Of a stretch of DNA of 64,000 bases, positions 20,031-28,521 are shown in pieces. The notes below the pieces were generated by a model that had not been told where the DNA came from, made no database searches, and saw only the letters and a list, made by a program, of their open reading frames with translations. Positions within the stretch are counted from its first letter, which is position 1; every line of letters begins with the position of its first letter. Source of the stretch: Pseudomonadota bacterium (GTDB taxonomy: Bacteria > Bdellovibrionota > Bdellovibrionia > Bdellovibrionales > SG-bin7); assembly GCA_034439715.1 (NCBI GenBank), contig JAWXAY010000100.1, forward strand, positions 55,353 to 119,352, read 5' to 3'. A program made the position numbers and the translations under genes.

Positions 20031-21590
20031 TTGGATCAAGAAATATTTGAGTGGCTGCTTTTATTAGGTCGATGGCTTCATATCACTGTCGCCATGGCGT
20101 GGATTGGCGCTTCATTCTTTTTCATGTGGCTCGATCGTACGCTTCAAAATAATGAACTCTGGATGGTCCACGGCGGCGGATTTTACCAAGTTAAAAAACA
20201 TCTCATGGGTCCGACAAGGGTTCCCAATCATTTGCACTGGTTTAAATGGGAGTCGTATTGGACCTGGCTCAGCGGACTTTTTTTAGTCATTCTGGTTTTT
20301 TATACCGGTAATGGTACTTTTCTTTTAGATTCGTCGGTTTCACAGGTCACTTACTGGCAGGCCGTTGGCATAAGTGTGGCATCGATGCTGGTATCCTGGC
20401 TGTATTATGATTTTTTATGGGAAAGTAAACTTGCTAAAAATAAACCTATAGTTGGGCACTTGCTAACTTTGTTGTGGTTTGTGGGTATGTCTTACTTTTT
20501 ATGTCATACTCTCAGCGGTAGAGCTGCGTATATTCATGTTGGTGGCATGCTTGGTACCTGGATGACCGCTAATGTGTTTTTGCGAATCATTCCTCGTCAA
20601 CTTAAAATGGTTGAGGCCGCAAAGCTTGGCGAGACGGTAAATCAAGAGTGGAGCAAGAACGCTAAGAATCGATCGACTCACAATACCTATTTTACCTTAC
20701 CTGTGATTTTCATAATGCTCAGCAATCACTTTCCGATGACCTATGGTCATAACTTCAACTGGCTCATTCTATTAGTTATCAGCGCGGCTGGTGCTGCGAT
20801 TCGTGAGTATTTTGTAGTTCGTCTGCAAAACCCTATTCGTGCGAAAATATTCGCTGCCGTCGGGGTCGTGTTGATTTTGGGAGTTATGTTTTTTACCAAG
20901 CAGAAGACACTTGTTCCCATAGAAACATATTCGGCTAAAGTTTCTGTAGAAAATCTTGGTCCAACGGCAAATGTTAAAGGTGTTGTAAAGTTTGTAGGAC
21001 CAGTACCGGTGGGCGAAAAGTTGCAGTTACCATTGGAGTGTAGGCAGGGCCGCGAGGGCGAGACTTTTTCAAATGAAGTTGTGGTTAATAACGGTAGGAT
21101 AAAAAATGTACTGATAAGAATCACCAAGGGGCTTGAAGGCAAAGTTTTTGGCGATGTGCCCGAGACTCCCGTACTCTTGGATCAAATAGATTGTCTCTAT
21201 GAACCAAGGGTGATTGGTGTTCGAGTTGGCCAAAAAATAGAAATTATTAATAGTGATTCTTTATTTCACAATGTGCGAGCGCTTACCAAAAACAATGAAG
21301 AGTTTAATATTTCAATGCCACAAAAAAACGATCGCTTTACTAAAGTATTTATGAAACCCGAAGTATTTTTACAAACAAAGTGTAGTGTACATCCCTGGAT
21401 GAGTGCCTATATTGCCGTTATAGAACACCCCTTTTTTAGCGTTACTAATGATACTGGCGAGTTTTTGATTAAGGATTTACCTTATGGGAACTATGCACTT
21501 GAAATTTGGCACGAAGTGTTCGGCGTTCAGACAAAAGAGATATCAGTAACTAAAGATCAGGATATTGAGTTTACCTTCAAAAGGGAGTGA
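20031..21590 (+). CDS. puuD: PuuD-type membrane urate hydroxylase N-domain fused to a cupredoxin/carboxypeptidase-regulatory-like domain
   Basis: RWLH...WIG.SF, WMVHGGGFY, LHWFKWESYWTWLSG, RSTHNTY, MLSNHFP; C-terminal DQ..C.Y.P, HNV, CSVHPWM, WHE; no CxxCH. Confidence 0.85.
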   Translation: MDQEIFEWLLLLGRWLHITVAMAWIGASFFFMWLDRTLQNNELWMVHGGGFYQVKKHLMGPTRVPNHLHWFKWESYWTWLSGLFLVILVFYTGNGTFLLDSSVSQVTYWQAVGISVASMLVSWLYYDFLWESKLAKNKPIVGHLLTLLWFVGMSYFLCHTLSGRAAYIHVGGMLGTWMTANVFLRIIPRQLKMVEAAKLGETVNQEWSKNAKNRSTHNTYFTLPVIFIMLSNHFPMTYGHNFNWLILLVISAAGAAIREYFVVRLQNPIRAKIFAAVGVVLILGVMFFTKQKTLVPIETYSAKVSVENLGPTANVKGVVKFVGPVPVGEKLQLPLECRQGREGETFSNEVVVNNGRIKNVLIRITKGLEGKVFGDVPETPVLLDQIDCLYEPRVIGVRVGQKIEIINSDSLFHNVRALTKNNEEFNISMPQKNDRFTKVFMKPEVFLQTKCSVHPWMSAYIAVIEHPFFSVTNDTGEFLIKDLPYGNYALEIWHEVFGVQTKEISVTKDQDIEFTFKRE

Positions 21591-21591
21591 C

Positions 21592-21915
21592 ATGATAAGC
21601 ACACATATTTTAGACACAAGTAAGGGCGTGCCAGCCGCAGGCATACCCGTTAAGTTAAGGTTTAGAAATGGGGACTCGTGGGCGGAGTTAGCGGTTGGAA
21701 AAACCAACTCTGACGGGCGATGCTCCTTTGAGTGCGAAATTGCTATGGGCATTTATAAAATTGTTTTTGAGGTGGAAGAATATCTCAAAAAACAAACTAA
21801 AGATTATTTTTACTCAAAAGTACCAGTCGTATTTAAGGTAACAGATGTTGGCCGCAAGTATCACGTGCCACTACTCTTGAATCCGTTTGGCTACTCCACT
21901 TATAGAGGTAGCTGA
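21592..21915 (+). CDS. uraH: 5-hydroxyisourate hydrolase (transthyretin-like)
   Basis: ISTHILD, TNSDGR, YHVPLLL and C-terminal YRGS. Confidence 0.95.
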   Translation: MISTHILDTSKGVPAAGIPVKLRFRNGDSWAELAVGKTNSDGRCSFECEIAMGIYKIVFEVEEYLKKQTKDYFYSKVPVVFKVTDVGRKYHVPLLLNPFGYSTYRGS

Positions 21916-21954
21916 AATCTGAAAACAAGAGAGATTCCTTACTATCAAGACTAT

Positions 21955-24900
21955 GTGACAGATGCGTTATTGAATTATTTGAAGCGCGAAAGCCGTCCAG
22001 TTGTCGGCGTATCTGAGTTGATGGAAGTCGGAAAAGGAGGAGGACTTGAGAATAAAGAATCGTTAAAATTTTTGTGTGAATTATACGACCAGCTAAAAGA
22101 GAATCTTAATCAAGTTTTAAACCAGAGAAAAACTGATCGTCACTTTATCGATCAGCGAACCCGCGCTTGTTATGAGCTCAATAAAAACCTTGGTATCGAT
22201 TTTATATCTCCTCAATACGAAACAATTATTGGCCATGAGGATGCAAATGGCCGAATCGTTATCGGCCCCAAAAATGATTTTTATGCAAAAAGTGGTGGCG
22301 GTAAACCTATTGCGCAATTGCCCGATTTTTTACAGGGTCACCACGTGACTTTATTTGGTCCGCCAGATGATGCCAAACTTTCTATAAATGCCATGAATGC
22401 CTTTTATAGAAAAACCAAGGACGAACCTGAAATCGTATCGGAACTACTTTCAACCCACTTGAGTAATCCCAAGTGGGGTGCCGACGATGAAGATTCTAAG
22501 ACGCCACTTAGAGCTGATTTAGTTGCGGCCGGTGAAAATCTTACCAGGTGTTTTGCTGGCGATCTTGAGTATACCGATCCCAAAACACAAAAAAAATATG
22601 CGCTAGAAAAGGGACGACTCGCTCTCCCTATTAAGCGATTCCCGGGTTTAGCTTTACCCTGTACTTTTCTGCTATATCGAGACAATCCGCTGCCGCTTCA
22701 CCTTTACGATTTTGCTCTTCATCTTTTTGAGAATTGGCATAACGAACAAGCGTTATCGTTTTATGTGCCTAAGCTCGAAAATGAAGAAGAGGCCCGATAT
22801 ATTTACTTGATGTGCGACACTGCAGAGGCGATGATTCAAAAACTCCACCCCGAGTATAAAAAGGGCGCCATCAGGCTGTTTGTCGTTCTAGAAAATCCTC
22901 GGGCGATTTTTCGTGTCAATGAAATCATGGATGCACTTTACCCTTATTTTGCTGGCGCCTCTCTAGGCTGGCACGATTATTTAAGCTCCGCCGCTCGTTT
23001 GTTTAAGAATGATGCTAACTATCGGATTCCTGTTAAAGCTGATCCAGATATAGTAATTAAATATATTAAGGCTTCACATGATTTGCTGGCACAGGTTGTT
23101 GGTTCGCGTGGTGGAGTCAAAATTGGTGGAATGTACGGCGTTCTGCCAATGGATAGTGATCTGTTTAGTCCCTCATACCAAATTGCCATAAAGGGTTTTA
23201 TAAAAGATGTCGTTACCGAGCTTAAAAGAAATCTCTCAGGTTTTTGGGTGGCACATCCCGATTTTATTCGGTGTGCACTGGCCATAGTTGAAAGCTGGAA
23301 ATTTTATCAGTCAGGTGATAAATCAAAACTAGATACCTTGGTCACCTGCCTTTTAGATAAAAAATACCATAAGGAAATTAGGGAGTTTATCCATGCCCGC
23401 GATTTGGCGGGACTCGACGTCAATGACCCGCTCTATGCAAGGTCATTGATTGTCGCCGATATTAAAGAATCGACGTTTATTGCCAATAATCATCCCGATG
23501 AAATTCGTTACAATGTGTTTCAGTCTCTGCAGTATTTGACGGATTGGTTAAGTGGCAATGGTTGTGTGGCGTTACCAGCCGAAATAGAGGGTGTGCCGGT
23601 ACGAGTAATGGATGATTTGGCTACGGCCGAACGCTCCCGGTGGGAGGTCTGGCATGAGCTGCACCACGGTCGCTTTAATCTAGAGGAATTTTTGAAAATT
23701 GCGCATGAAGAGATGATATTTATACGCAAAGATCTTTCGAACTCAAAAAAAATCGTACAGGTTAAGTGGAATGAGCGGACTGAAAAATGGTACCCAGTGG
23801 CCATGAGGCTAATGATTGAACTAATGACTAGCCCGGCGCCAGTTGAATTTGCGACTGAGCTTTTAATGTCATTTACAGTGGACTCGATTAGGCAAGAAGC
23901 AGATCCTCTTTTGGCATTGAGTAAGATAGATCCCGGCAAACTTGCTTTGAATTCATATATAGAGCGCTTTAATTACTATTTTTTAATTTGCGGCAATCTT
24001 GTTTTTGCAAAGACGATGGCCCAAAATATATCGGTTGATTTAGCGCTGGCAGAAAAACTTATAAACAACTTTACTTTGGATGAAGTTAAGGCCGCCGCGT
24101 ATTTTCATGGTGACATTGGCGAGAATAAGAAAACACTTGATGAAATGGCATCAAATGAGCAGGCGCTGGTGCTGAATGAGGACAATAAAATTAAGTCCGA
24201 GTTAGCCGATCTTGGTTTTAAATACCTGCAAAAATTTGGAGTAAAGTTTTTAATTTCTGCAAAAAACAAATCTGGAAAAGAAATAGTGTCAGCGCTTAGG
24301 ACGCGCCTCGAAAATACGGCTTCACAAGAATTGATCAATGCCAAGTCTGCGCTTTGGGAAATTAGCCTTAAGCGATTAAAAACTCAAGCGGAGCAAAGCC
24401 TTCATCAGCAAATCGAGAGATTGCGAGCTATGCACAATATTGGAGATGCCGCAGTCAGTGTTTCATTGCCGGGGGGAAGTGGGCAATTGCTTTGTTTTGG
24501 TGGGGCGACCGAGCAAACCTGGTTTCAATATGCGTCTTTAAGTAAAACGTTGTCCAGTTGTTTTGCCGTCGAATACTTTCACAATAAAAATATTTCTCTC
24601 GATACTCCCGTGGATTCTTTGTTAGAAAAAACAGAATCTGCATTTCGCATAAAGTCTGCTGAGGTTACGCTCCGTCACCTTATGAATCACACAGCGCTAA
24701 ACATGCATTACGTCAACGGAGTGCCAACAGCAGAAAAAATGCCAAATGTACGTGAGTTGCTTGACCCGATTGTCGTGACCAATGTGCCGGGCACGAGATT
24801 TCAGTATTCTGGCGGCGGATTTCTAGTGCTCCAACATCTTATCGAAGCTTTAGAAGGAAAAACTATTGTTGAGATTACCAAAACGTTTTTTGACAAGTTA

Positions 24901-26496
24901 GATTTAAAAAATTTAAGCTTTGCACCAGTGCCTGCTCCTAATATGGAAAAAATGTTCCCCGCTTTTGCGGCGGGCGTCCTAGGTACTGCCACTGACATGT
25001 CGCGATTTTTAGGGTGCCTCACTGGCGCCTATAAATCGTTAGACGGCGCGGGCCCCATTTCTCATAATACTGCGATAGAGATGTTACACGGTGCAGACGT
25101 TGGAAGTTTTAAGTTCATAGGAGCAAAAATGGGGCTCGGTGTTTTTATAGCCGAAGCTGGCCCTAATCGCCTCATGTTACATCAGGGCGCGAATGATGGG
25201 TTCCGATCGGTTTTTGTTCACTGCTTTGATGGCCCCGATAGCGGCACTGGGTTTGTGGTGCTGTGCACTGGTGATTTTAATGGGGTCTTGTTTATTTCTG
25301 AAGTAGCGCAATTAATATTTAAGGAACTTAACCTAAAAGGTGTCGACACAAATAAATTTCTGAATAAATTTGAACTCTTAAATATCCCGCCTGAGGAAGT
25401 AGTCAATCGAGCCTATAAAAATTTACTGTTTGATGCCTTTGAGCCAGATTTGCCGGAAGTGATCAAACAAAAGGGCCCGCTTGACCCCCTCGCTTCAAAA
25501 AATCTCGCCGTAGGCGGTAAAATCGTAGAGACCAGCAATCAAGGCTTTGCCCGAGCTGAAAATCTTTTATCTCCGCACTTGCCGACATTTGATTCTGAGC
25601 TTTATGGCCGTCAAGGAAAAATAATGGATAGCTGGGAATCTGTACGTCATAACCCTAATTCAAACGACTATCTCATTTTTGAGTTAAAAAAACCGTCAAC
25701 AATTTCTCAGGTTTCTCTATCCACAAAATATCACCTCGGGAATCACGCTGAGGCAGTGGAAATCGAAGGTCTCGACAGTCAAGGGCAGTGGCAGAGAATT
25801 ATCGCGAAAACTGAGTTAAATGGACATGCCATTAAATTTCTCCTATCGCTGGCTAATAAATCGATTTTTACGACTATTAAAGTTTCGATGTTTCCTGACG
25901 GAGGATTAACCCGATTGGGTCTCTACAAAGATGAGCTCCCGGAACAGCCAAAAAACCAGATTTTTAGTGAAGGCATTCCTCACACTAATAAGCCGCTCAC
26001 ACCTCAGTTTAAGGGAGCACCACGTTTTTCGTCTGGCATCGAAATAGATATTGCCAGCCAGGCTTACGGCGGAAAAATAATTAGTGTGTCGAATCAGCAT
26101 TATGGTCCGGCTTCTCAAATTATTTCACCCTATCCGCCAATCAACATGTTCGATGGTTTTGAATCTGCGCGCAGTCGAGAAGCAGATCATTTCGAAGATG
26201 TGATTATTGAACTGGGTCGACCCGCAAAAATTAGCCGTATCGAAATAGATTTTACCTACTTTAAAAACAATAACCCTCGCGAATTAAGCATAGAGGGATT
26301 ATCTAAAAATGGCTGGGTTGTTTTAGTGACAAAAACAAACGTCAAAGCGTATGCCGGTAATGTGGTAGAGTTTAAGCCAAAAAATACAGAGGAGATCAAA
26401 CAAGTGAAAGTCGTGGTTTTTCCAGATGGCGGAATAAATCGGGTCAAAGTTTTTACGAGACCAGAGAAGAGACCTGAGAAGGGACCAGCAACATGA
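21955..26496 (+). CDS. fusion: malate synthase / OHCU decarboxylase / beta-lactamase-fold serine hydrolase / allantoicase
   Basis: MS: ADDEDS, YVPKLE, LENP, GWHDY, WVAHP, GNGCV, MDDLATAE. OHCU: HGDIG, EQ, Y..KFG..F, RLEN, KRL. Hydrolase: SLSK, YSGGG, HQG. Allantoicase: two repeats with DSWES/DGFES and PDGG..R. Confidence 0.88.
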   Translation: MTDALLNYLKRESRPVVGVSELMEVGKGGGLENKESLKFLCELYDQLKENLNQVLNQRKTDRHFIDQRTRACYELNKNLGIDFISPQYETIIGHEDANGRIVIGPKNDFYAKSGGGKPIAQLPDFLQGHHVTLFGPPDDAKLSINAMNAFYRKTKDEPEIVSELLSTHLSNPKWGADDEDSKTPLRADLVAAGENLTRCFAGDLEYTDPKTQKKYALEKGRLALPIKRFPGLALPCTFLLYRDNPLPLHLYDFALHLFENWHNEQALSFYVPKLENEEEARYIYLMCDTAEAMIQKLHPEYKKGAIRLFVVLENPRAIFRVNEIMDALYPYFAGASLGWHDYLSSAARLFKNDANYRIPVKADPDIVIKYIKASHDLLAQVVGSRGGVKIGGMYGVLPMDSDLFSPSYQIAIKGFIKDVVTELKRNLSGFWVAHPDFIRCALAIVESWKFYQSGDKSKLDTLVTCLLDKKYHKEIREFIHARDLAGLDVNDPLYARSLIVADIKESTFIANNHPDEIRYNVFQSLQYLTDWLSGNGCVALPAEIEGVPVRVMDDLATAERSRWEVWHELHHGRFNLEEFLKIAHEEMIFIRKDLSNSKKIVQVKWNERTEKWYPVAMRLMIELMTSPAPVEFATELLMSFTVDSIRQEADPLLALSKIDPGKLALNSYIERFNYYFLICGNLVFAKTMAQNISVDLALAEKLINNFTLDEVKAAAYFHGDIGENKKTLDEMASNEQALVLNEDNKIKSELADLGFKYLQKFGVKFLISAKNKSGKEIVSALRTRLENTASQELINAKSALWEISLKRLKTQAEQSLHQQIERLRAMHNIGDAAVSVSLPGGSGQLLCFGGATEQTWFQYASLSKTLSSCFAVEYFHNKNISLDTPVDSLLEKTESAFRIKSAEVTLRHLMNHTALNMHYVNGVPTAEKMPNVRELLDPIVVTNVPGTRFQYSGGGFLVLQHLIEALEGKTIVEITKTFFDKLDLKNLSFAPVPAPNMEKMFPAFAAGVLGTATDMSRFLGCLTGAYKSLDGAGPISHNTAIEMLHGADVGSFKFIGAKMGLGVFIAEAGPNRLMLHQGANDGFRSVFVHCFDGPDSGTGFVVLCTGDFNGVLFISEVAQLIFKELNLKGVDTNKFLNKFELLNIPPEEVVNRAYKNLLFDAFEPDLPEVIKQKGPLDPLASKNLAVGGKIVETSNQGFARAENLLSPHLPTFDSELYGRQGKIMDSWESVRHNPNSNDYLIFELKKPSTISQVSLSTKYHLGNHAEAVEIEGLDSQGQWQRIIAKTELNGHAIKFLLSLANKSIFTTIKVSMFPDGGLTRLGLYKDELPEQPKNQIFSEGIPHTNKPLTPQFKGAPRFSSGIEIDIASQAYGGKIISVSNQHYGPASQIISPYPPINMFDGFESARSREADHFEDVIIELGRPAKISRIEIDFTYFKNNNPRELSIEGLSKNGWVVLVTKTNVKAYAGNVVEFKPKNTEEIKQVKVVVFPDGGINRVKVFTRPEKRPEKGPAT

Positions 26497-27275
26497 AAAA
26501 GTTACGGAGGTGGGTGATTAAGGCAGGTAGTAAAATGGTGTGCGATGGTGGTCCTCTCCTTTTACTGAGTTGGATGCGGCAAGTTGATGAGTTAAGACGC
26601 AAACATAAAATCGAAGTTATTTGGGTGACTTCAGGAGCCATTTCCTGGGCTGTGAATCGCACCAAGTTTAAAAAACTGAATCGTAAACTTCAGCAAAAGC
26701 AGGCACTAAGTGCCATTGGGCAACCGTTGGTAATGGAACAGTATAATCTGGCCCTTCATAAATTAAACCTATTGGGCTCTCAGGTTTTGTTAACAGCGGG
26801 AGACATGCGAGATCGCACTCGGCGGAGAAATTTACAAAATACGCTCAATGAAATCTTACGCTGGAAGGTCACTCCAATACTCAATGAAAATGATGCTGTT
26901 GCCACCGAAGAAATCCAGTTTGGTGACAATGATTCATTGGCCTCGCAAGTAGCCATCATGATGAAAGCCGAACGTTTGGTATTGATGACGGATGTAGACG
27001 GTCTTTTCGATGATGATCCCAAAAAGAATAAGAGAGCTAAGTTGATCAATTATCGGCGCCGAATTAGTAAAGTAGACCTTCGCTTAGCTCGCAAAAAATC
27101 TAAATCTCTGCAAGGCACGGGCGGAATGTTTTCAAAACTTTTGGCTGTCCGTAGAGCGAGTCGCTCAGGTGTCGTCTGCCATTTGGTGCGTGGTGACTCT
27201 CCTAAAAATCTGTTAGAGATTGCCTCTGACCGGTCGGTCGGCACTCAAATAGGTGGACTCTATGAAAACAAATAG
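26493..27275 (+). CDS. proB: glutamate 5-kinase (no PUA domain)
   Basis: VIKAGS, TSGA, NENDAV, FGDNDSLA, GTGGM.SK. Confidence 0.93.
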   Translation: MKKLRRWVIKAGSKMVCDGGPLLLLSWMRQVDELRRKHKIEVIWVTSGAISWAVNRTKFKKLNRKLQQKQALSAIGQPLVMEQYNLALHKLNLLGSQVLLTAGDMRDRTRRRNLQNTLNEILRWKVTPILNENDAVATEEIQFGDNDSLASQVAIMMKAERLVLMTDVDGLFDDDPKKNKRAKLINYRRRISKVDLRLARKKSKSLQGTGGMFSKLLAVRRASRSGVVCHLVRGDSPKNLLEIASDRSVGTQIGGLYENK

Positions 27276-28521
27276 CGAAATGGAGCAGGCGCTCGTGTCT
27301 CTCCGCCAAGGAAACCGTCAGCTGCGAGGATTAAGTGCTGCGCGAAAAAACAAAACGTTAATAAAACTAGCAGAGATTATAGAAAGCGAAGCTCCGACAA
27401 TTTTGAGCGCAAATCTCATTGATCTAAAACAGCTACCCAAAGACACAACAGCCGCATTTCGTGACCGACTTGCGCTAGATCAAGACCGTGTGTTGGCTAT
27501 GGTGCAAAGTCTGAGGGAAGTGGCAAACCTCACTGATCCCGTCGGTGAAGTCATCGATGAAAAAACTCTTTCTAATAATTTAAGACTGAAGCGGGTGCGT
27601 TCTCCTTTGGGTCTTATCTTTATGATTTTTGAGTCCCGACCAAACGTGATTCTTGAGGCCTTTTCGCTCGCATTTAAATCCGGGAATTCAATAATACTTC
27701 GCGGCGGGTCAGACTCAGGCGCCACGAGCAAAGTAATTTATGGGTTAATGGCTAATGCCCTTTCAGAAAGTGGCGTGGAGTTTTCGGTATTCTATGGCTT
27801 GCAAGATTATGACCGAGGCATCGTCGAGAATTTGCTAAAAAGAAAAAATCTTATCGATGTCGTTGTTCCGAGAGGTGGAGAAAAATTAATAGATTTTGTG
27901 CAGAGTCATGCTCTTATGCCAATTATTAAAAATGATCGTGGTCTATGCCATACCTATGTAGACGAAGACGCCGATCTCGAAATGGCGGTGCGAATTGTAG
28001 CAAATGCAAAAACTCAGAGGCCCGGTGTGTGTAACGCTCTAGAGACAGTTCTCGTTCACCAAAATTGCGCTAAGGATTTTATTCCTAAGCTTTACCAGGC
28101 AACCGAATCCGTAAAATTAACCTGGCGAGTGGACCAGGCGAGCCTAAGTATTTTAAAAAATGAATCACGTGTACAGTTGGCTTCGCCAGCGGATTGGGAT
28201 ACAGAGTATCTTGATCTTATCATGAATTGTCGTATTGTTTCTAATTTGGATAGCGCCATTGAGCATATTGAGCGACACGGCTCAAAACACTCCGAAGCCA
28301 TTGTGACAAGTTCTGAAAAAAAAGCTCGGAATTTTCAAAATGAGGTCGATGCGGCGGCCGTTTATTGGAATGCTTCGACTCGATTTACAGATGGTTTTGA
28401 GTTTGGTTTGGGGGGCGAGCTTGGTATTAGCACTCAAAAAATTCACGTGCGGGGACCGGTTGGACTTCGCGAATTAACTACTCCCCGCTGGATTATCGAT
28501 GGCGACGGGCAAGTTCGGTAA
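27262..28521 (+). CDS. proA: gamma-glutamyl phosphate reductase
   Basis: FESRPNV, VCNALET, HSEAI, NASTRFTDG, GISTQKIH.RGP. Confidence 0.95.
   Translation: MKTNSEMEQALVSLRQGNRQLRGLSAARKNKTLIKLAEIIESEAPTILSANLIDLKQLPKDTTAAFRDRLALDQDRVLAMVQSLREVANLTDPVGEVIDEKTLSNNLRLKRVRSPLGLIFMIFESRPNVILEAFSLAFKSGNSIILRGGSDSGATSKVIYGLMANALSESGVEFSVFYGLQDYDRGIVENLLKRKNLIDVVVPRGGEKLIDFVQSHALMPIIKNDRGLCHTYVDEDADLEMAVRIVANAKTQRPGVCNALETVLVHQNCAKDFIPKLYQATESVKLTWRVDQASLSILKNESRVQLASPADWDTEYLDLIMNCRIVSNLDSAIEHIERHGSKHSEAIVTSSEKKARNFQNEVDAAAVYWNASTRFTDGFEFGLGGELGISTQKIHVRGPVGLRELTTPRWIIDGDGQVR

Follow-up and report, generated by a model that had tools for sequence, protein, structure and literature searches.

A compact urate-degradation locus in a member of the Bdellovibrionales, with a predicted copper-binding PuuD and a beta-lactamase-fold candidate allantoinase

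The window analysed here, a stretch of 64,000 nucleotides from a genome of the order Bdellovibrionales (95.7% complete), contains three co-oriented genes of purine catabolism, which lie on the + strand together with all the features described below. These are a puuD-like gene for a membrane urate oxidase (20031–21590, 519 aa), uraH, coding for 5-hydroxyisourate hydrolase (21592–21915, 107 aa from ATG), and a four-domain fusion gene (21955–26496, 1513 aa counted from a GTG codon, to which all residue numbers of the fusion refer). In terms of Pfam families the fusion reads, in order, MS_TIM-barrel plus MS_C, OHCU_decarbox, Beta-lactamase, and two Allantoicase repeats. A preliminary description of this DNA had already recognized the three genes, and their identities hold by Pfam and TIGR02962, although the two most unusual points were missed; it said nothing of what the beta-lactamase-fold domain does or of the copper domain of PuuD. 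The common orientation and the 1-bp gap between puuD and uraH that it reported are correct, but the 39-bp gap between uraH and the fusion applies to the GTG start call and shrinks to 3 bp if the gene begins, as seems likely, at the CTG at 21919. Upstream of the GTG the reading frame stays open as far back as 21916 and contains the N-terminal family motif IPYYxD, which favours the CTG. This codon has an AGAGGT 9 nt upstream (21904–21909) that could be its ribosome site (21904–21921 for the pair), and the protein would then have 1525 aa. Of 76 homologous ORFs, 57 have the motif within their first 45 residues, usually some 22 nt after the uraH stop; here the distance is 24 nt.

The fusion cannot be put down to misassembly, as the best 120 of its 636 database matches all have the same domain set. 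Contigs from four further runs, possibly of one campaign, show zero substitutions or indels over the stretch, with no single contig spanning the whole. The three genes are intact and syntenic across Bdellovibrionota and Planctomycetota. Of 78 related loci, 70 have uraH and 13 come from records titled Planctomycetota; cultured carriers include Bdellovibrio sp. HCB337, Peredibacter sp. HCB2-198, and Halobacteriovorax marinus. Within the source order the full fusion was found in only five of 61 genomes sampled. This rarity and the planctomycetal loci weaken the earlier proposal that the pathway would suit a predator digesting the nucleic acids of its prey. The genes proB and proA follow downstream, overlapping the fusion gene by 4 nt, and were rejected as part of the unit (0/78 related loci carry them). 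A search for riboswitches or other RNAs upstream gave one chance-level Rfam match only, and counts of promoters and terminators were at the level of shuffled sequence. Fusion can go further in this group of genes, as a five-enzyme version including uricase exists.

Three of the activities can be assigned by family. UraH scores 128.8 bits with TIGR02962 (cut-off 87.45), ends in YRGS, and would carry out the second step of the route, giving OHCU. The OHCU decarboxylase (UraD) domain (23956–24390, about residues 668–812) exceeds the cut-off of PF09349 and retains the conserved His; this residue, H718, corresponds in the alignment to the catalytic H67 of chain 5uou_A. H718, E735, and R807 are found in all 120 fusions listed. 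Its score with TIGR03180 is below the cut-off (70.9 vs. 139.4 bits), and by family membership the domain would perform the third step, yielding (S)-allantoin. The allantoicase domain (25468–26460, about residues 1172–1502) consists of two jelly-roll repeats (PF03561 twice) with D-x-W/F-E-x-x-R motifs, and yeast allantoicase is its best match in both sequence and fold. It would produce ureidoglycolate and urea in the fifth step, and its 196.9 bits with the equivalog TIGR02961, below the cut-off of 277.9, mark it as a divergent clade. Purine-catabolic enzymes are likewise joined or clustered in the allantoicase-UraD fusions (PRK13797) and in the yeast DAL cluster; here, in contrast, four enzymes share a chain and the order is different.

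By family and fold, the first gene codes for a membrane urate oxidase of the PuuD kind in which a blue-copper domain replaces the cytochrome c. It matches Urate_ox_N (DUF989, PF06181) over the full length of the membrane domain (residues 5–287, profile positions 3–292 of 295, E 3e-102, 342 bits). In its AlphaFold model (pTM 0.78) the helical membrane part ends at residue 288, and the whole-protein model gave no clear fold match for this part. CxxCH is absent from the ORF. Instead, residues 380–464 (21168–21422) form a cupredoxin domain with a predicted type-1 copper site (H413, C451, H454, and M457, i.e., His...Cys-x2-His-x2-Met), inserted in a transthyretin/CnaB-like beta-sandwich (about 310–378 and 465–519). 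The best Foldseek matches of the copper domain are cupredoxin, amicyanin, and plastocyanin, and VIA-align superposes it on 1b3i and 5fc9 with Z 10.3 and rmsd 1.7–1.9 Å over 82–85 residues, a score with which the beta-sandwich matches of the flanking part tie (Z 10–10.6). Both copper motifs are present in 120 of 120 listed homologues and CxxCH in none of them; among 56 puuD loci, 50 have the copper motifs, four have CxxCH, and two are cut off. PuuD occurs in 56 of the 78 related loci and Uox in nine, never both. The PuuD described in Agrobacterium fabrum (COG3748/DUF989; PMC4562309) shares the full-length membrane domain, the adjoining uraH/uraD, and the alternation with Uox, but carries a cytochrome c with CxxCH, which was described as invariant in full-length DUF989 proteins (Doniselli et al., 2015, PMC4562309). 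The copper PuuD contradicts that claim and implies that any one-electron carrier may serve. In the present genome no other uricase was found in a search that left HpxO/HpyO aside. In the first step PuuD would oxidise urate to 5-hydroxyisourate at the membrane, with electrons probably passing to the periplasmic type-1 copper.

The preliminary description had suggested looking through the genome for xdh, allB/puuE, allA, and urease. XdhABC is encoded elsewhere in the genome, and neither a canonical allantoinase nor AllA was found. The AllB-type matches are two dihydroorotases and one dihydropyrimidinase, and the search also found no AllC/D/E, second malate synthase, Gcl, GlcB, AceA, or urea carboxylase; glyoxylate reductases and aminotransferases were outside its scope. 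Urease is missing from this genome and from five of five further fusion genomes. For this 95.7% complete genome we therefore rejected the possibility that canonical enzymes encoded elsewhere (AllB, PuuE, AllA, AllC/D/E) carry the steps, so that the missing ones have to be supplied by the three polypeptides. The proposal that nearly the whole route is compressed into three polypeptides stands in so far as it describes a compressed purine-catabolic operon; its extension to malate is only a possibility. Seven steps lead to malate and six catalytic domains are present; malate would arise only with a malate-synthase-like domain that catalyses two of the steps or with spontaneous decay of ureidoglycolate. 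The reading that we consider reasonably probable is that the three polypeptides, supplied by XdhABC, hold a full oxidative pathway that takes urate to glyoxylate and two molecules of urea.

The malate-synthase-like domain (22012–23904, about residues 20–650) was compared with malate synthase A (MSA). It scores far below the TIGR01344 cut-off (136.7 vs. 594.5 bits) and has the catalytic Arg, Mg ligands, and catalytic Asp of MSA; it shares with Escherichia coli AceB (3cuz) the equivalents of R166, E250, D278, and D447 and of the adenine-site residues G96 and P369, at about 25% identity, but is longer and differs from it around the pantetheine channel throughout the clade. Seven residues that all 14 canonical MSA rows share (T95, R168, T251, N273, R276, W277, and E446) are replaced in the clade, and T95F, R276W, W277H, and A331Y are seen in 120 of 120 fusions and in 112 of 112 standalone MS-like copies. 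At the seven acetyl-CoA-site positions named in PMC3112382, G96, M330, P369, and C438 are identical, I94L and M102L are conservative, and T95F is the change; the equivalent of W365 is also retained (W431). Eukaryotic MS-like proteins act as ureidoglycolate lyases, as shown for zebrafish DrMSL/UGL (Dembech et al., 2023, PMC10120013), a group reported as confined to eukaryotes and marked by W365M and a lost acetyl-CoA site. The MS fold, the tie to allantoicase, the replacement of R276 (Trp here, Ile in DrMSL, with W277 changed to H here), and the glyoxylate and Mg ligands are common to both, but unlike the DrMSL group the present domain keeps W365 and most acetyl-CoA-site residues. The same authors proposed a two-function enzyme from which MS and UGL may both descend (PMC10120013).

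The genome profile of this clade is like that of a lyase, accompanying allantoicase and excluding AllA. Allantoicase is present in 26 of 28 genomes with the MS-like clade vs. 36 of 223 without it, and AllA, among the genomes with allantoicase, in one of 26 MS-like carriers (a weak match, 42.9 bits) vs. 17 of 36 others (Fisher p 1.6e-4, an overstated value because related genomes are not independent). Absence of AllA is in itself common (19 of the 36 allantoicase genomes without the clade also lack it), and at 16 of 20 unfused MS-like loci there was no purine gene within about 7 kb. It seems quite likely that the domain has ureidoglycolate lyase activity and would split ureidoglycolate into glyoxylate and urea in the sixth step; whether it is a lyase only is an evenly balanced matter, and lyase plus synthase is rather doubtful. 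As the acetyl-CoA-site residues are mostly kept and the genome profile is lyase-like, glyoxylate and malate are both possible end products, glyoxylate release being more likely than malate making. If the domain were a lyase only, its glyoxylate and the urea would have no known use, given the absence of gcl, glcB, aceA, urease, and urea carboxylase from the genome. One could also imagine that the beta-lactamase-fold domain is the allantoinase while ureidoglycolate decays spontaneously or through the allantoicase domain, the N-terminal domain making malate alone. Such an arrangement would agree with the retained MSA residues, with a genome in which neither a further malate synthase nor a glyoxylate carboligase was found, with the lack of a second malate synthase in 14 of 16 fusion-bearing genomes tested (only two have one), and with the malate synthase DAL7, which lies beside the allantoin genes in the yeast DAL cluster (PMC13751858). 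We regard it as unlikely, however: a downstream synthase would be expected together with AllA, which the clade avoids, 17 of the 28 MS-like carriers (Myxococcota) already have a canonical MSA over the cut-off, and the seven MSA-invariant residues are gone.

The remaining domain (24397–25449, about residues 815–1165) would fill the fourth step. It has the PF00144 fold by sequence and structure, matching R61 DD-peptidase, AmpC, and LACTB, and carries SxxK (S861-L-S-K864), the Tyr of motif 2 (Y951), and the HxG of motif 3 (H1076-Q-G). YSG stands for the YxN motif and HQG for KTG, and the domain is no class C beta-lactamase (NF033085, 20.7 bits, cut-off 415). S861, K864, Y951, H1076-Q-G, N1080, and R1084 are present in 120 of 120 fusions listed. 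Allantoinase is known in two folds, the amidohydrolase AllB (TIGR03178) and the polysaccharide-deacetylase-fold PuuE (TIGR03212); this domain has neither, and we claim that it works like AllB/PuuE, not that it is one of them. We judge it highly probable from genome context that it is a third kind of allantoinase. By analogy with SxxK hydrolases, Ser861 would attack the carbonyl and open the hydantoin ring, with Lys864 and Tyr951 as the base, and the acyl-enzyme would be hydrolysed to allantoate; this predicted serine-lysine-tyrosine chemistry differs from the metal or TIM-barrel site of the known enzymes.

In the pathway, as in gene clusters, the domain stands where AllB or PuuE would, and the two are mutually exclusive in the genomes tested. 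Two sets of fusion-bearing genome handles gave no AllB over the cut-off (0/25 and 0/27), and PuuE and AllA are found in 0 of 52 (at most 50 distinct and mostly incomplete genomes, two pairs of handles having identical match coordinates). Conversely, four of 20 Myxococcota loci with an unfused MS-like gene are purine clusters, three with AllB and one with PuuE over the cut-off, and the beta-lactamase subfamily is absent from those four genomes (0/4, positive control detected). The subfamily forms one clade in a quick tree (SH-aLRT 100; two rows labelled "other" inside it are truncated members). A transcript of the predatory dinoflagellate Polykrikos kofoidii (P0173), which may derive from its prey, joins the domain to a PF04115 ureidoglycolate lyase and a canonical allantoicase and ends in SKL; having its own lyase and allantoicase, it argues that the beta-lactamase-fold domain is not the lyase. 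PTS1-type C-terminal tripeptides are present in 19 of 26 standalone copies vs. 0 of 46 allantoicase-fused copies and five of 542 background ORFs. A metagenome scan with one standalone protein as query found nothing, while a scan with an alignment worked, and ESM Atlas gave generic names only.

Two other roles for this domain have to be weighed. It could act on a side product, (R)-allantoin, ureidoglycolate, or a urea-type carbamoyl, with a dihydropyrimidinase or dihydroorotase moonlighting on allantoin, which we hold to be improbable. No allantoinase is known to use a serine nucleophile, the genome does have a dihydropyrimidinase beside an NCS1 permease, and one of the 78 related loci has one nearby; the gene in this genome, however, belongs to a full pyrimidine operon. 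Moreover, six of 25 (1e-60) and 17 of 27 (1e-70) fusion handles have no amidohydrolase match, and the domain is missing exactly where AllB/PuuE occurs and sits between UraD and allantoicase. That flux ends at allantoin, or that the domain is a passenger unrelated to purines (linker, relic, or cell-wall/beta-lactam hydrolase), as its nearest solved relatives, DD-peptidases and class C beta-lactamases, might suggest, is very improbable given its invariant catalytic residues, its position within a cytoplasmic-type fusion, its joining to allantoicase in several arrangements, the peroxisomal signals on standalone copies, and the YSG in place of YxN.

In a literature search in which subscription journals were mostly not covered, we found no paper on a copper PuuD, on the four-domain fusion, or on a beta-lactamase-fold allantoinase; the supplements and datasets of PMC10120013 could include the eukaryotic orthogroup. 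A serine allantoinase, also peroxisomal in many algae and protists, together with a copper urate oxidase and a bifunctional MS-fold lyase/synthase is, taken jointly, a tentative and not very likely combination; were it true, purines would be burned for carbon and electrons and the urea discarded. An MS-fold lyase in bacteria would widen the range of a function so far reported only from eukaryotes, and the idea of a bifunctional MS/UGL enzyme could be tested on it directly. If the beta-lactamase-fold domain is indeed an allantoinase, a family labelled "serine hydrolase" or "CubicO peptidase" in databases would have a role in primary metabolism, and a gap in the pathway of Bdellovibrionota, of Planctomycetota, and probably of several groups of protists would be closed.

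The three open reading frames proposed in the preliminary description are present in the sequence, all on one strand: a puuD-like gene (20031-21590), uraH (21592-21915), and a fusion gene (21955-26496 from GTG). Profile searches confirmed their identities, with a PuuD membrane domain in the first product, a score over the UraH cut-off for the second and four enzyme domains in the third, in the order malate-synthase-like (MS-like), OHCU decarboxylase (UraD), beta-lactamase fold, and allantoicase. The 1-bp gap between puuD and uraH is correct; the 39 bp reported before the fusion appears to be an artefact of calling the start at GTG. Comparison with homologues places the first motif of the family in frame upstream of this codon, and a CTG at 21919, preceded by a ribosome site and leaving a 3-bp gap to uraH, would be the start suggested by the sequence (residues of the fusion protein are counted here from GTG). 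Downstream lie proB, which overlaps the stop codon end of the fusion gene by 4 nt, and then proA, both on the same strand (26493-28521), an arrangement not conserved in related loci.

The full domain set was found in 120/120 of the best of 636 database matches (56-66% identity), and a genome scan for the fusion gave 78 loci, by record title 61 of Bdellovibrionota type, 13 Planctomycetota, and four others. uraH is present in 70 of these loci, puuD in 56, xdhA/B in 21, and a guanine-deaminase-like gene, whose name rests on a deaminase Pfam match and context, in seven, while canonical uricase occurs in nine, never together with puuD. Locus L016, titled Chitinophaga pinensis, has the gene order of planctomycete loci L019 and L063, and its title may be wrong. 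A DUF3891 gene stands after xdhABC, ahead of molybdenum cofactor genes, in planctomycete loci L017, L063, L067, and L070. Variant fusions include a 1940-aa ORF (L133:156-5975, + strand) with a uricase (TIGR03383 over cut-off) ahead of the four domains, i.e., five purine enzymes in one chain, and a similar ORF broken into three frames (L123:279-6170). In a split form (L117), beta-lactamase-allantoicase is a 772-aa protein of its own and the MS-like part has a separate gene; puuD is also present, and the genes lie on opposite strands. Eukaryote-like versions (P0211, P0145, P0221, P0191, and P0166/P0277), some ending in SKL or ARL, come from records that include Amoebophrya sp. and a protein from Oithona nana that may be contamination.

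The preliminary description had named xdh, allB/puuE, allA, and urease as genes to look for elsewhere. The window's genome (95.7% complete) contains xdhABC, and we found in it no PuuE, AllA, AllC/D/E, Gcl, GlcB, AceA, second malate synthase, urease, or urea carboxylase; the three proteins in it that resemble AllB turned out to be two dihydroorotases and one dihydropyrimidinase, the last in a pyrimidine operon. Among handles of fusion-bearing genomes, AllB over cut-off was found in 0/25 and 0/27, and PuuE and AllA each in 0/52 (genomes of 49 of the 78 loci plus three relatives, with two duplicate pairs and hence at most 50 distinct, mostly incomplete genomes). Thus the allantoinase and ureidoglycolate lyase steps are left without a gene, against two domains of the fusion without an obvious step.

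One of these, the beta-lactamase-fold domain, is probably a serine allantoinase. By structure comparison it resembles DD-peptidases, AmpC, and LACTB in fold, its score is far under the class C beta-lactamase cut-off, and S861, K864, Y951, H1076-Q-G, N1080, and R1084 are found in 120/120 homologues. Four lines point to this function, the first being its placement between UraD and allantoicase. Secondly, a natural exchange is seen in Myxococcota, where the same MS-like gene stands unfused in 20 loci; four of these are purine clusters (uricase or PuuD, UraH, UraD, and allantoicase), three with AllB and one with PuuE over cut-off, and the beta-lactamase subfamily was found in none of these four genomes. 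Thirdly, in a Polykrikos kofoidii transcript (P0173, a single record that may come from prey) the domain shares one chain with a canonical PF04115 lyase and a canonical allantoicase, which argues that the domain is not the lyase. Lastly, EukProt and MMETSP records, including Phaeocystis cordata, contain standalone copies of ~400 residues, and in a metagenome scan 19 of 26 such copies with complete C-terminus (near-duplicates included) end in a peroxisomal signal (SKL, SRL, AKL, or CRL), compared to 0/46 allantoicase-fused copies and 5/542 background ORFs. Signals of this kind are also present on the urate oxidase and the allantoinase of a cryptophyte (PMC9244630). In a quick tree, fused and standalone forms group in one clade (SH-aLRT 100), to the exclusion of 30 generic members of the family. 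By analogy with the usual chemistry of the fold, the cyclic amide of allantoin would be opened via an acyl-serine.

For the MS-like domain (residues numbered after E. coli malate synthase A, MSA), a role as lyase only seems about evenly balanced. Dembech et al. (PMC10120013) demonstrated ureidoglycolate lyase activity, and no synthase activity, for the MS-like protein of zebrafish; they called its group eukaryote-only and raised the idea of a bifunctional ancestor. The bacterial clade is present in 28/251 Myxococcota genomes; allantoicase is found in 62/251, i.e., 26/28 carriers vs. 36/223 others, and among these AllA occurs in 1/26 carriers (a weak partial match) vs. 17/36 others, canonical MSA being also present in 17/28 carriers. 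Such a distribution fits a lyase, although related genomes are not independent. The residues give a mixed picture. T95F, R276W, W277H, and A331Y are found in 120/120 fusions and 112/112 standalone copies, whereas canonical MSA keeps T95, R276, and W277 in 14/14 rows; T95 is given as a possible pantothenate contact in PMC3112382, which also supplied the list of acetyl-CoA-site residues. Equivalents of R166, E250, D278, and D447 are kept, as are those of W365, G96, M330, P369, and C438, so the residue signature differs from that of the zebrafish lyase. Counting against a lyase-only role, no second malate synthase was found in 14/16 fusion genomes tested and, with no urease, nitrogen is not recovered and a gain of carbon would make sense. 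A domain acting as both lyase and synthase is rather unlikely, and synthase only quite unlikely. Standalone MS-like proteins P0304, P0305, and P0314 (61-65% identity) come from the anaerobes Desulfogranum and Desulfosediminicola.

The PuuD of the window also departs from the known form. The PuuD-defining paper gives a C-terminal cytochrome c as invariant (PMC4562309), whereas here CxxCH is absent from the C-terminal part and a structural model (pTM 0.78) predicts a cupredoxin fold, with residues 380-464 matching amicyanin, plastocyanin, and other cupredoxins within a beta-sandwich stalk. The H413, C451, H454, and M457 motifs are found in 120/120 PuuD homologues listed, and copper motifs in 50/56 puuD loci vs. 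the cytochrome form in 4/56. Many homologues were already labelled "membrane protein/plastocyanin" by JGI. In the window's PuuD, the first loop (20139-20160) lacks ~10 residues relative to the family consensus.

Overall, the operon is a real, conserved, and compressed purine pathway on three genes, as first proposed, with UraH, UraD, and a divergent allantoicase as known enzymes, a predicted copper PuuD as a new variant and, probably, a serine allantoinase and a bacterial MS-fold lyase as two others. We found no paper on copper PuuD, serine allantoinase, or bacterial MS-fold lyase in a literature covered mostly as titles and abstract openings. The rationale of a predator digesting prey nucleic acids is not needed to explain the fusion, since it is found in 5/61 sampled genomes of the window's order, and 13/78 loci are from records titled Planctomycetota, a group of mostly non-predators. 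The window's genome also has a complete reductive pyrimidine catabolism operon with an NCS1 permease (G000:C16, L007:2400-11407), so it degrades both kinds of base. From the urate-to-malate route originally described, the purine pathway stands and malate is a possible end product, but it is safer to describe the route as "urate to glyoxylate and urea".
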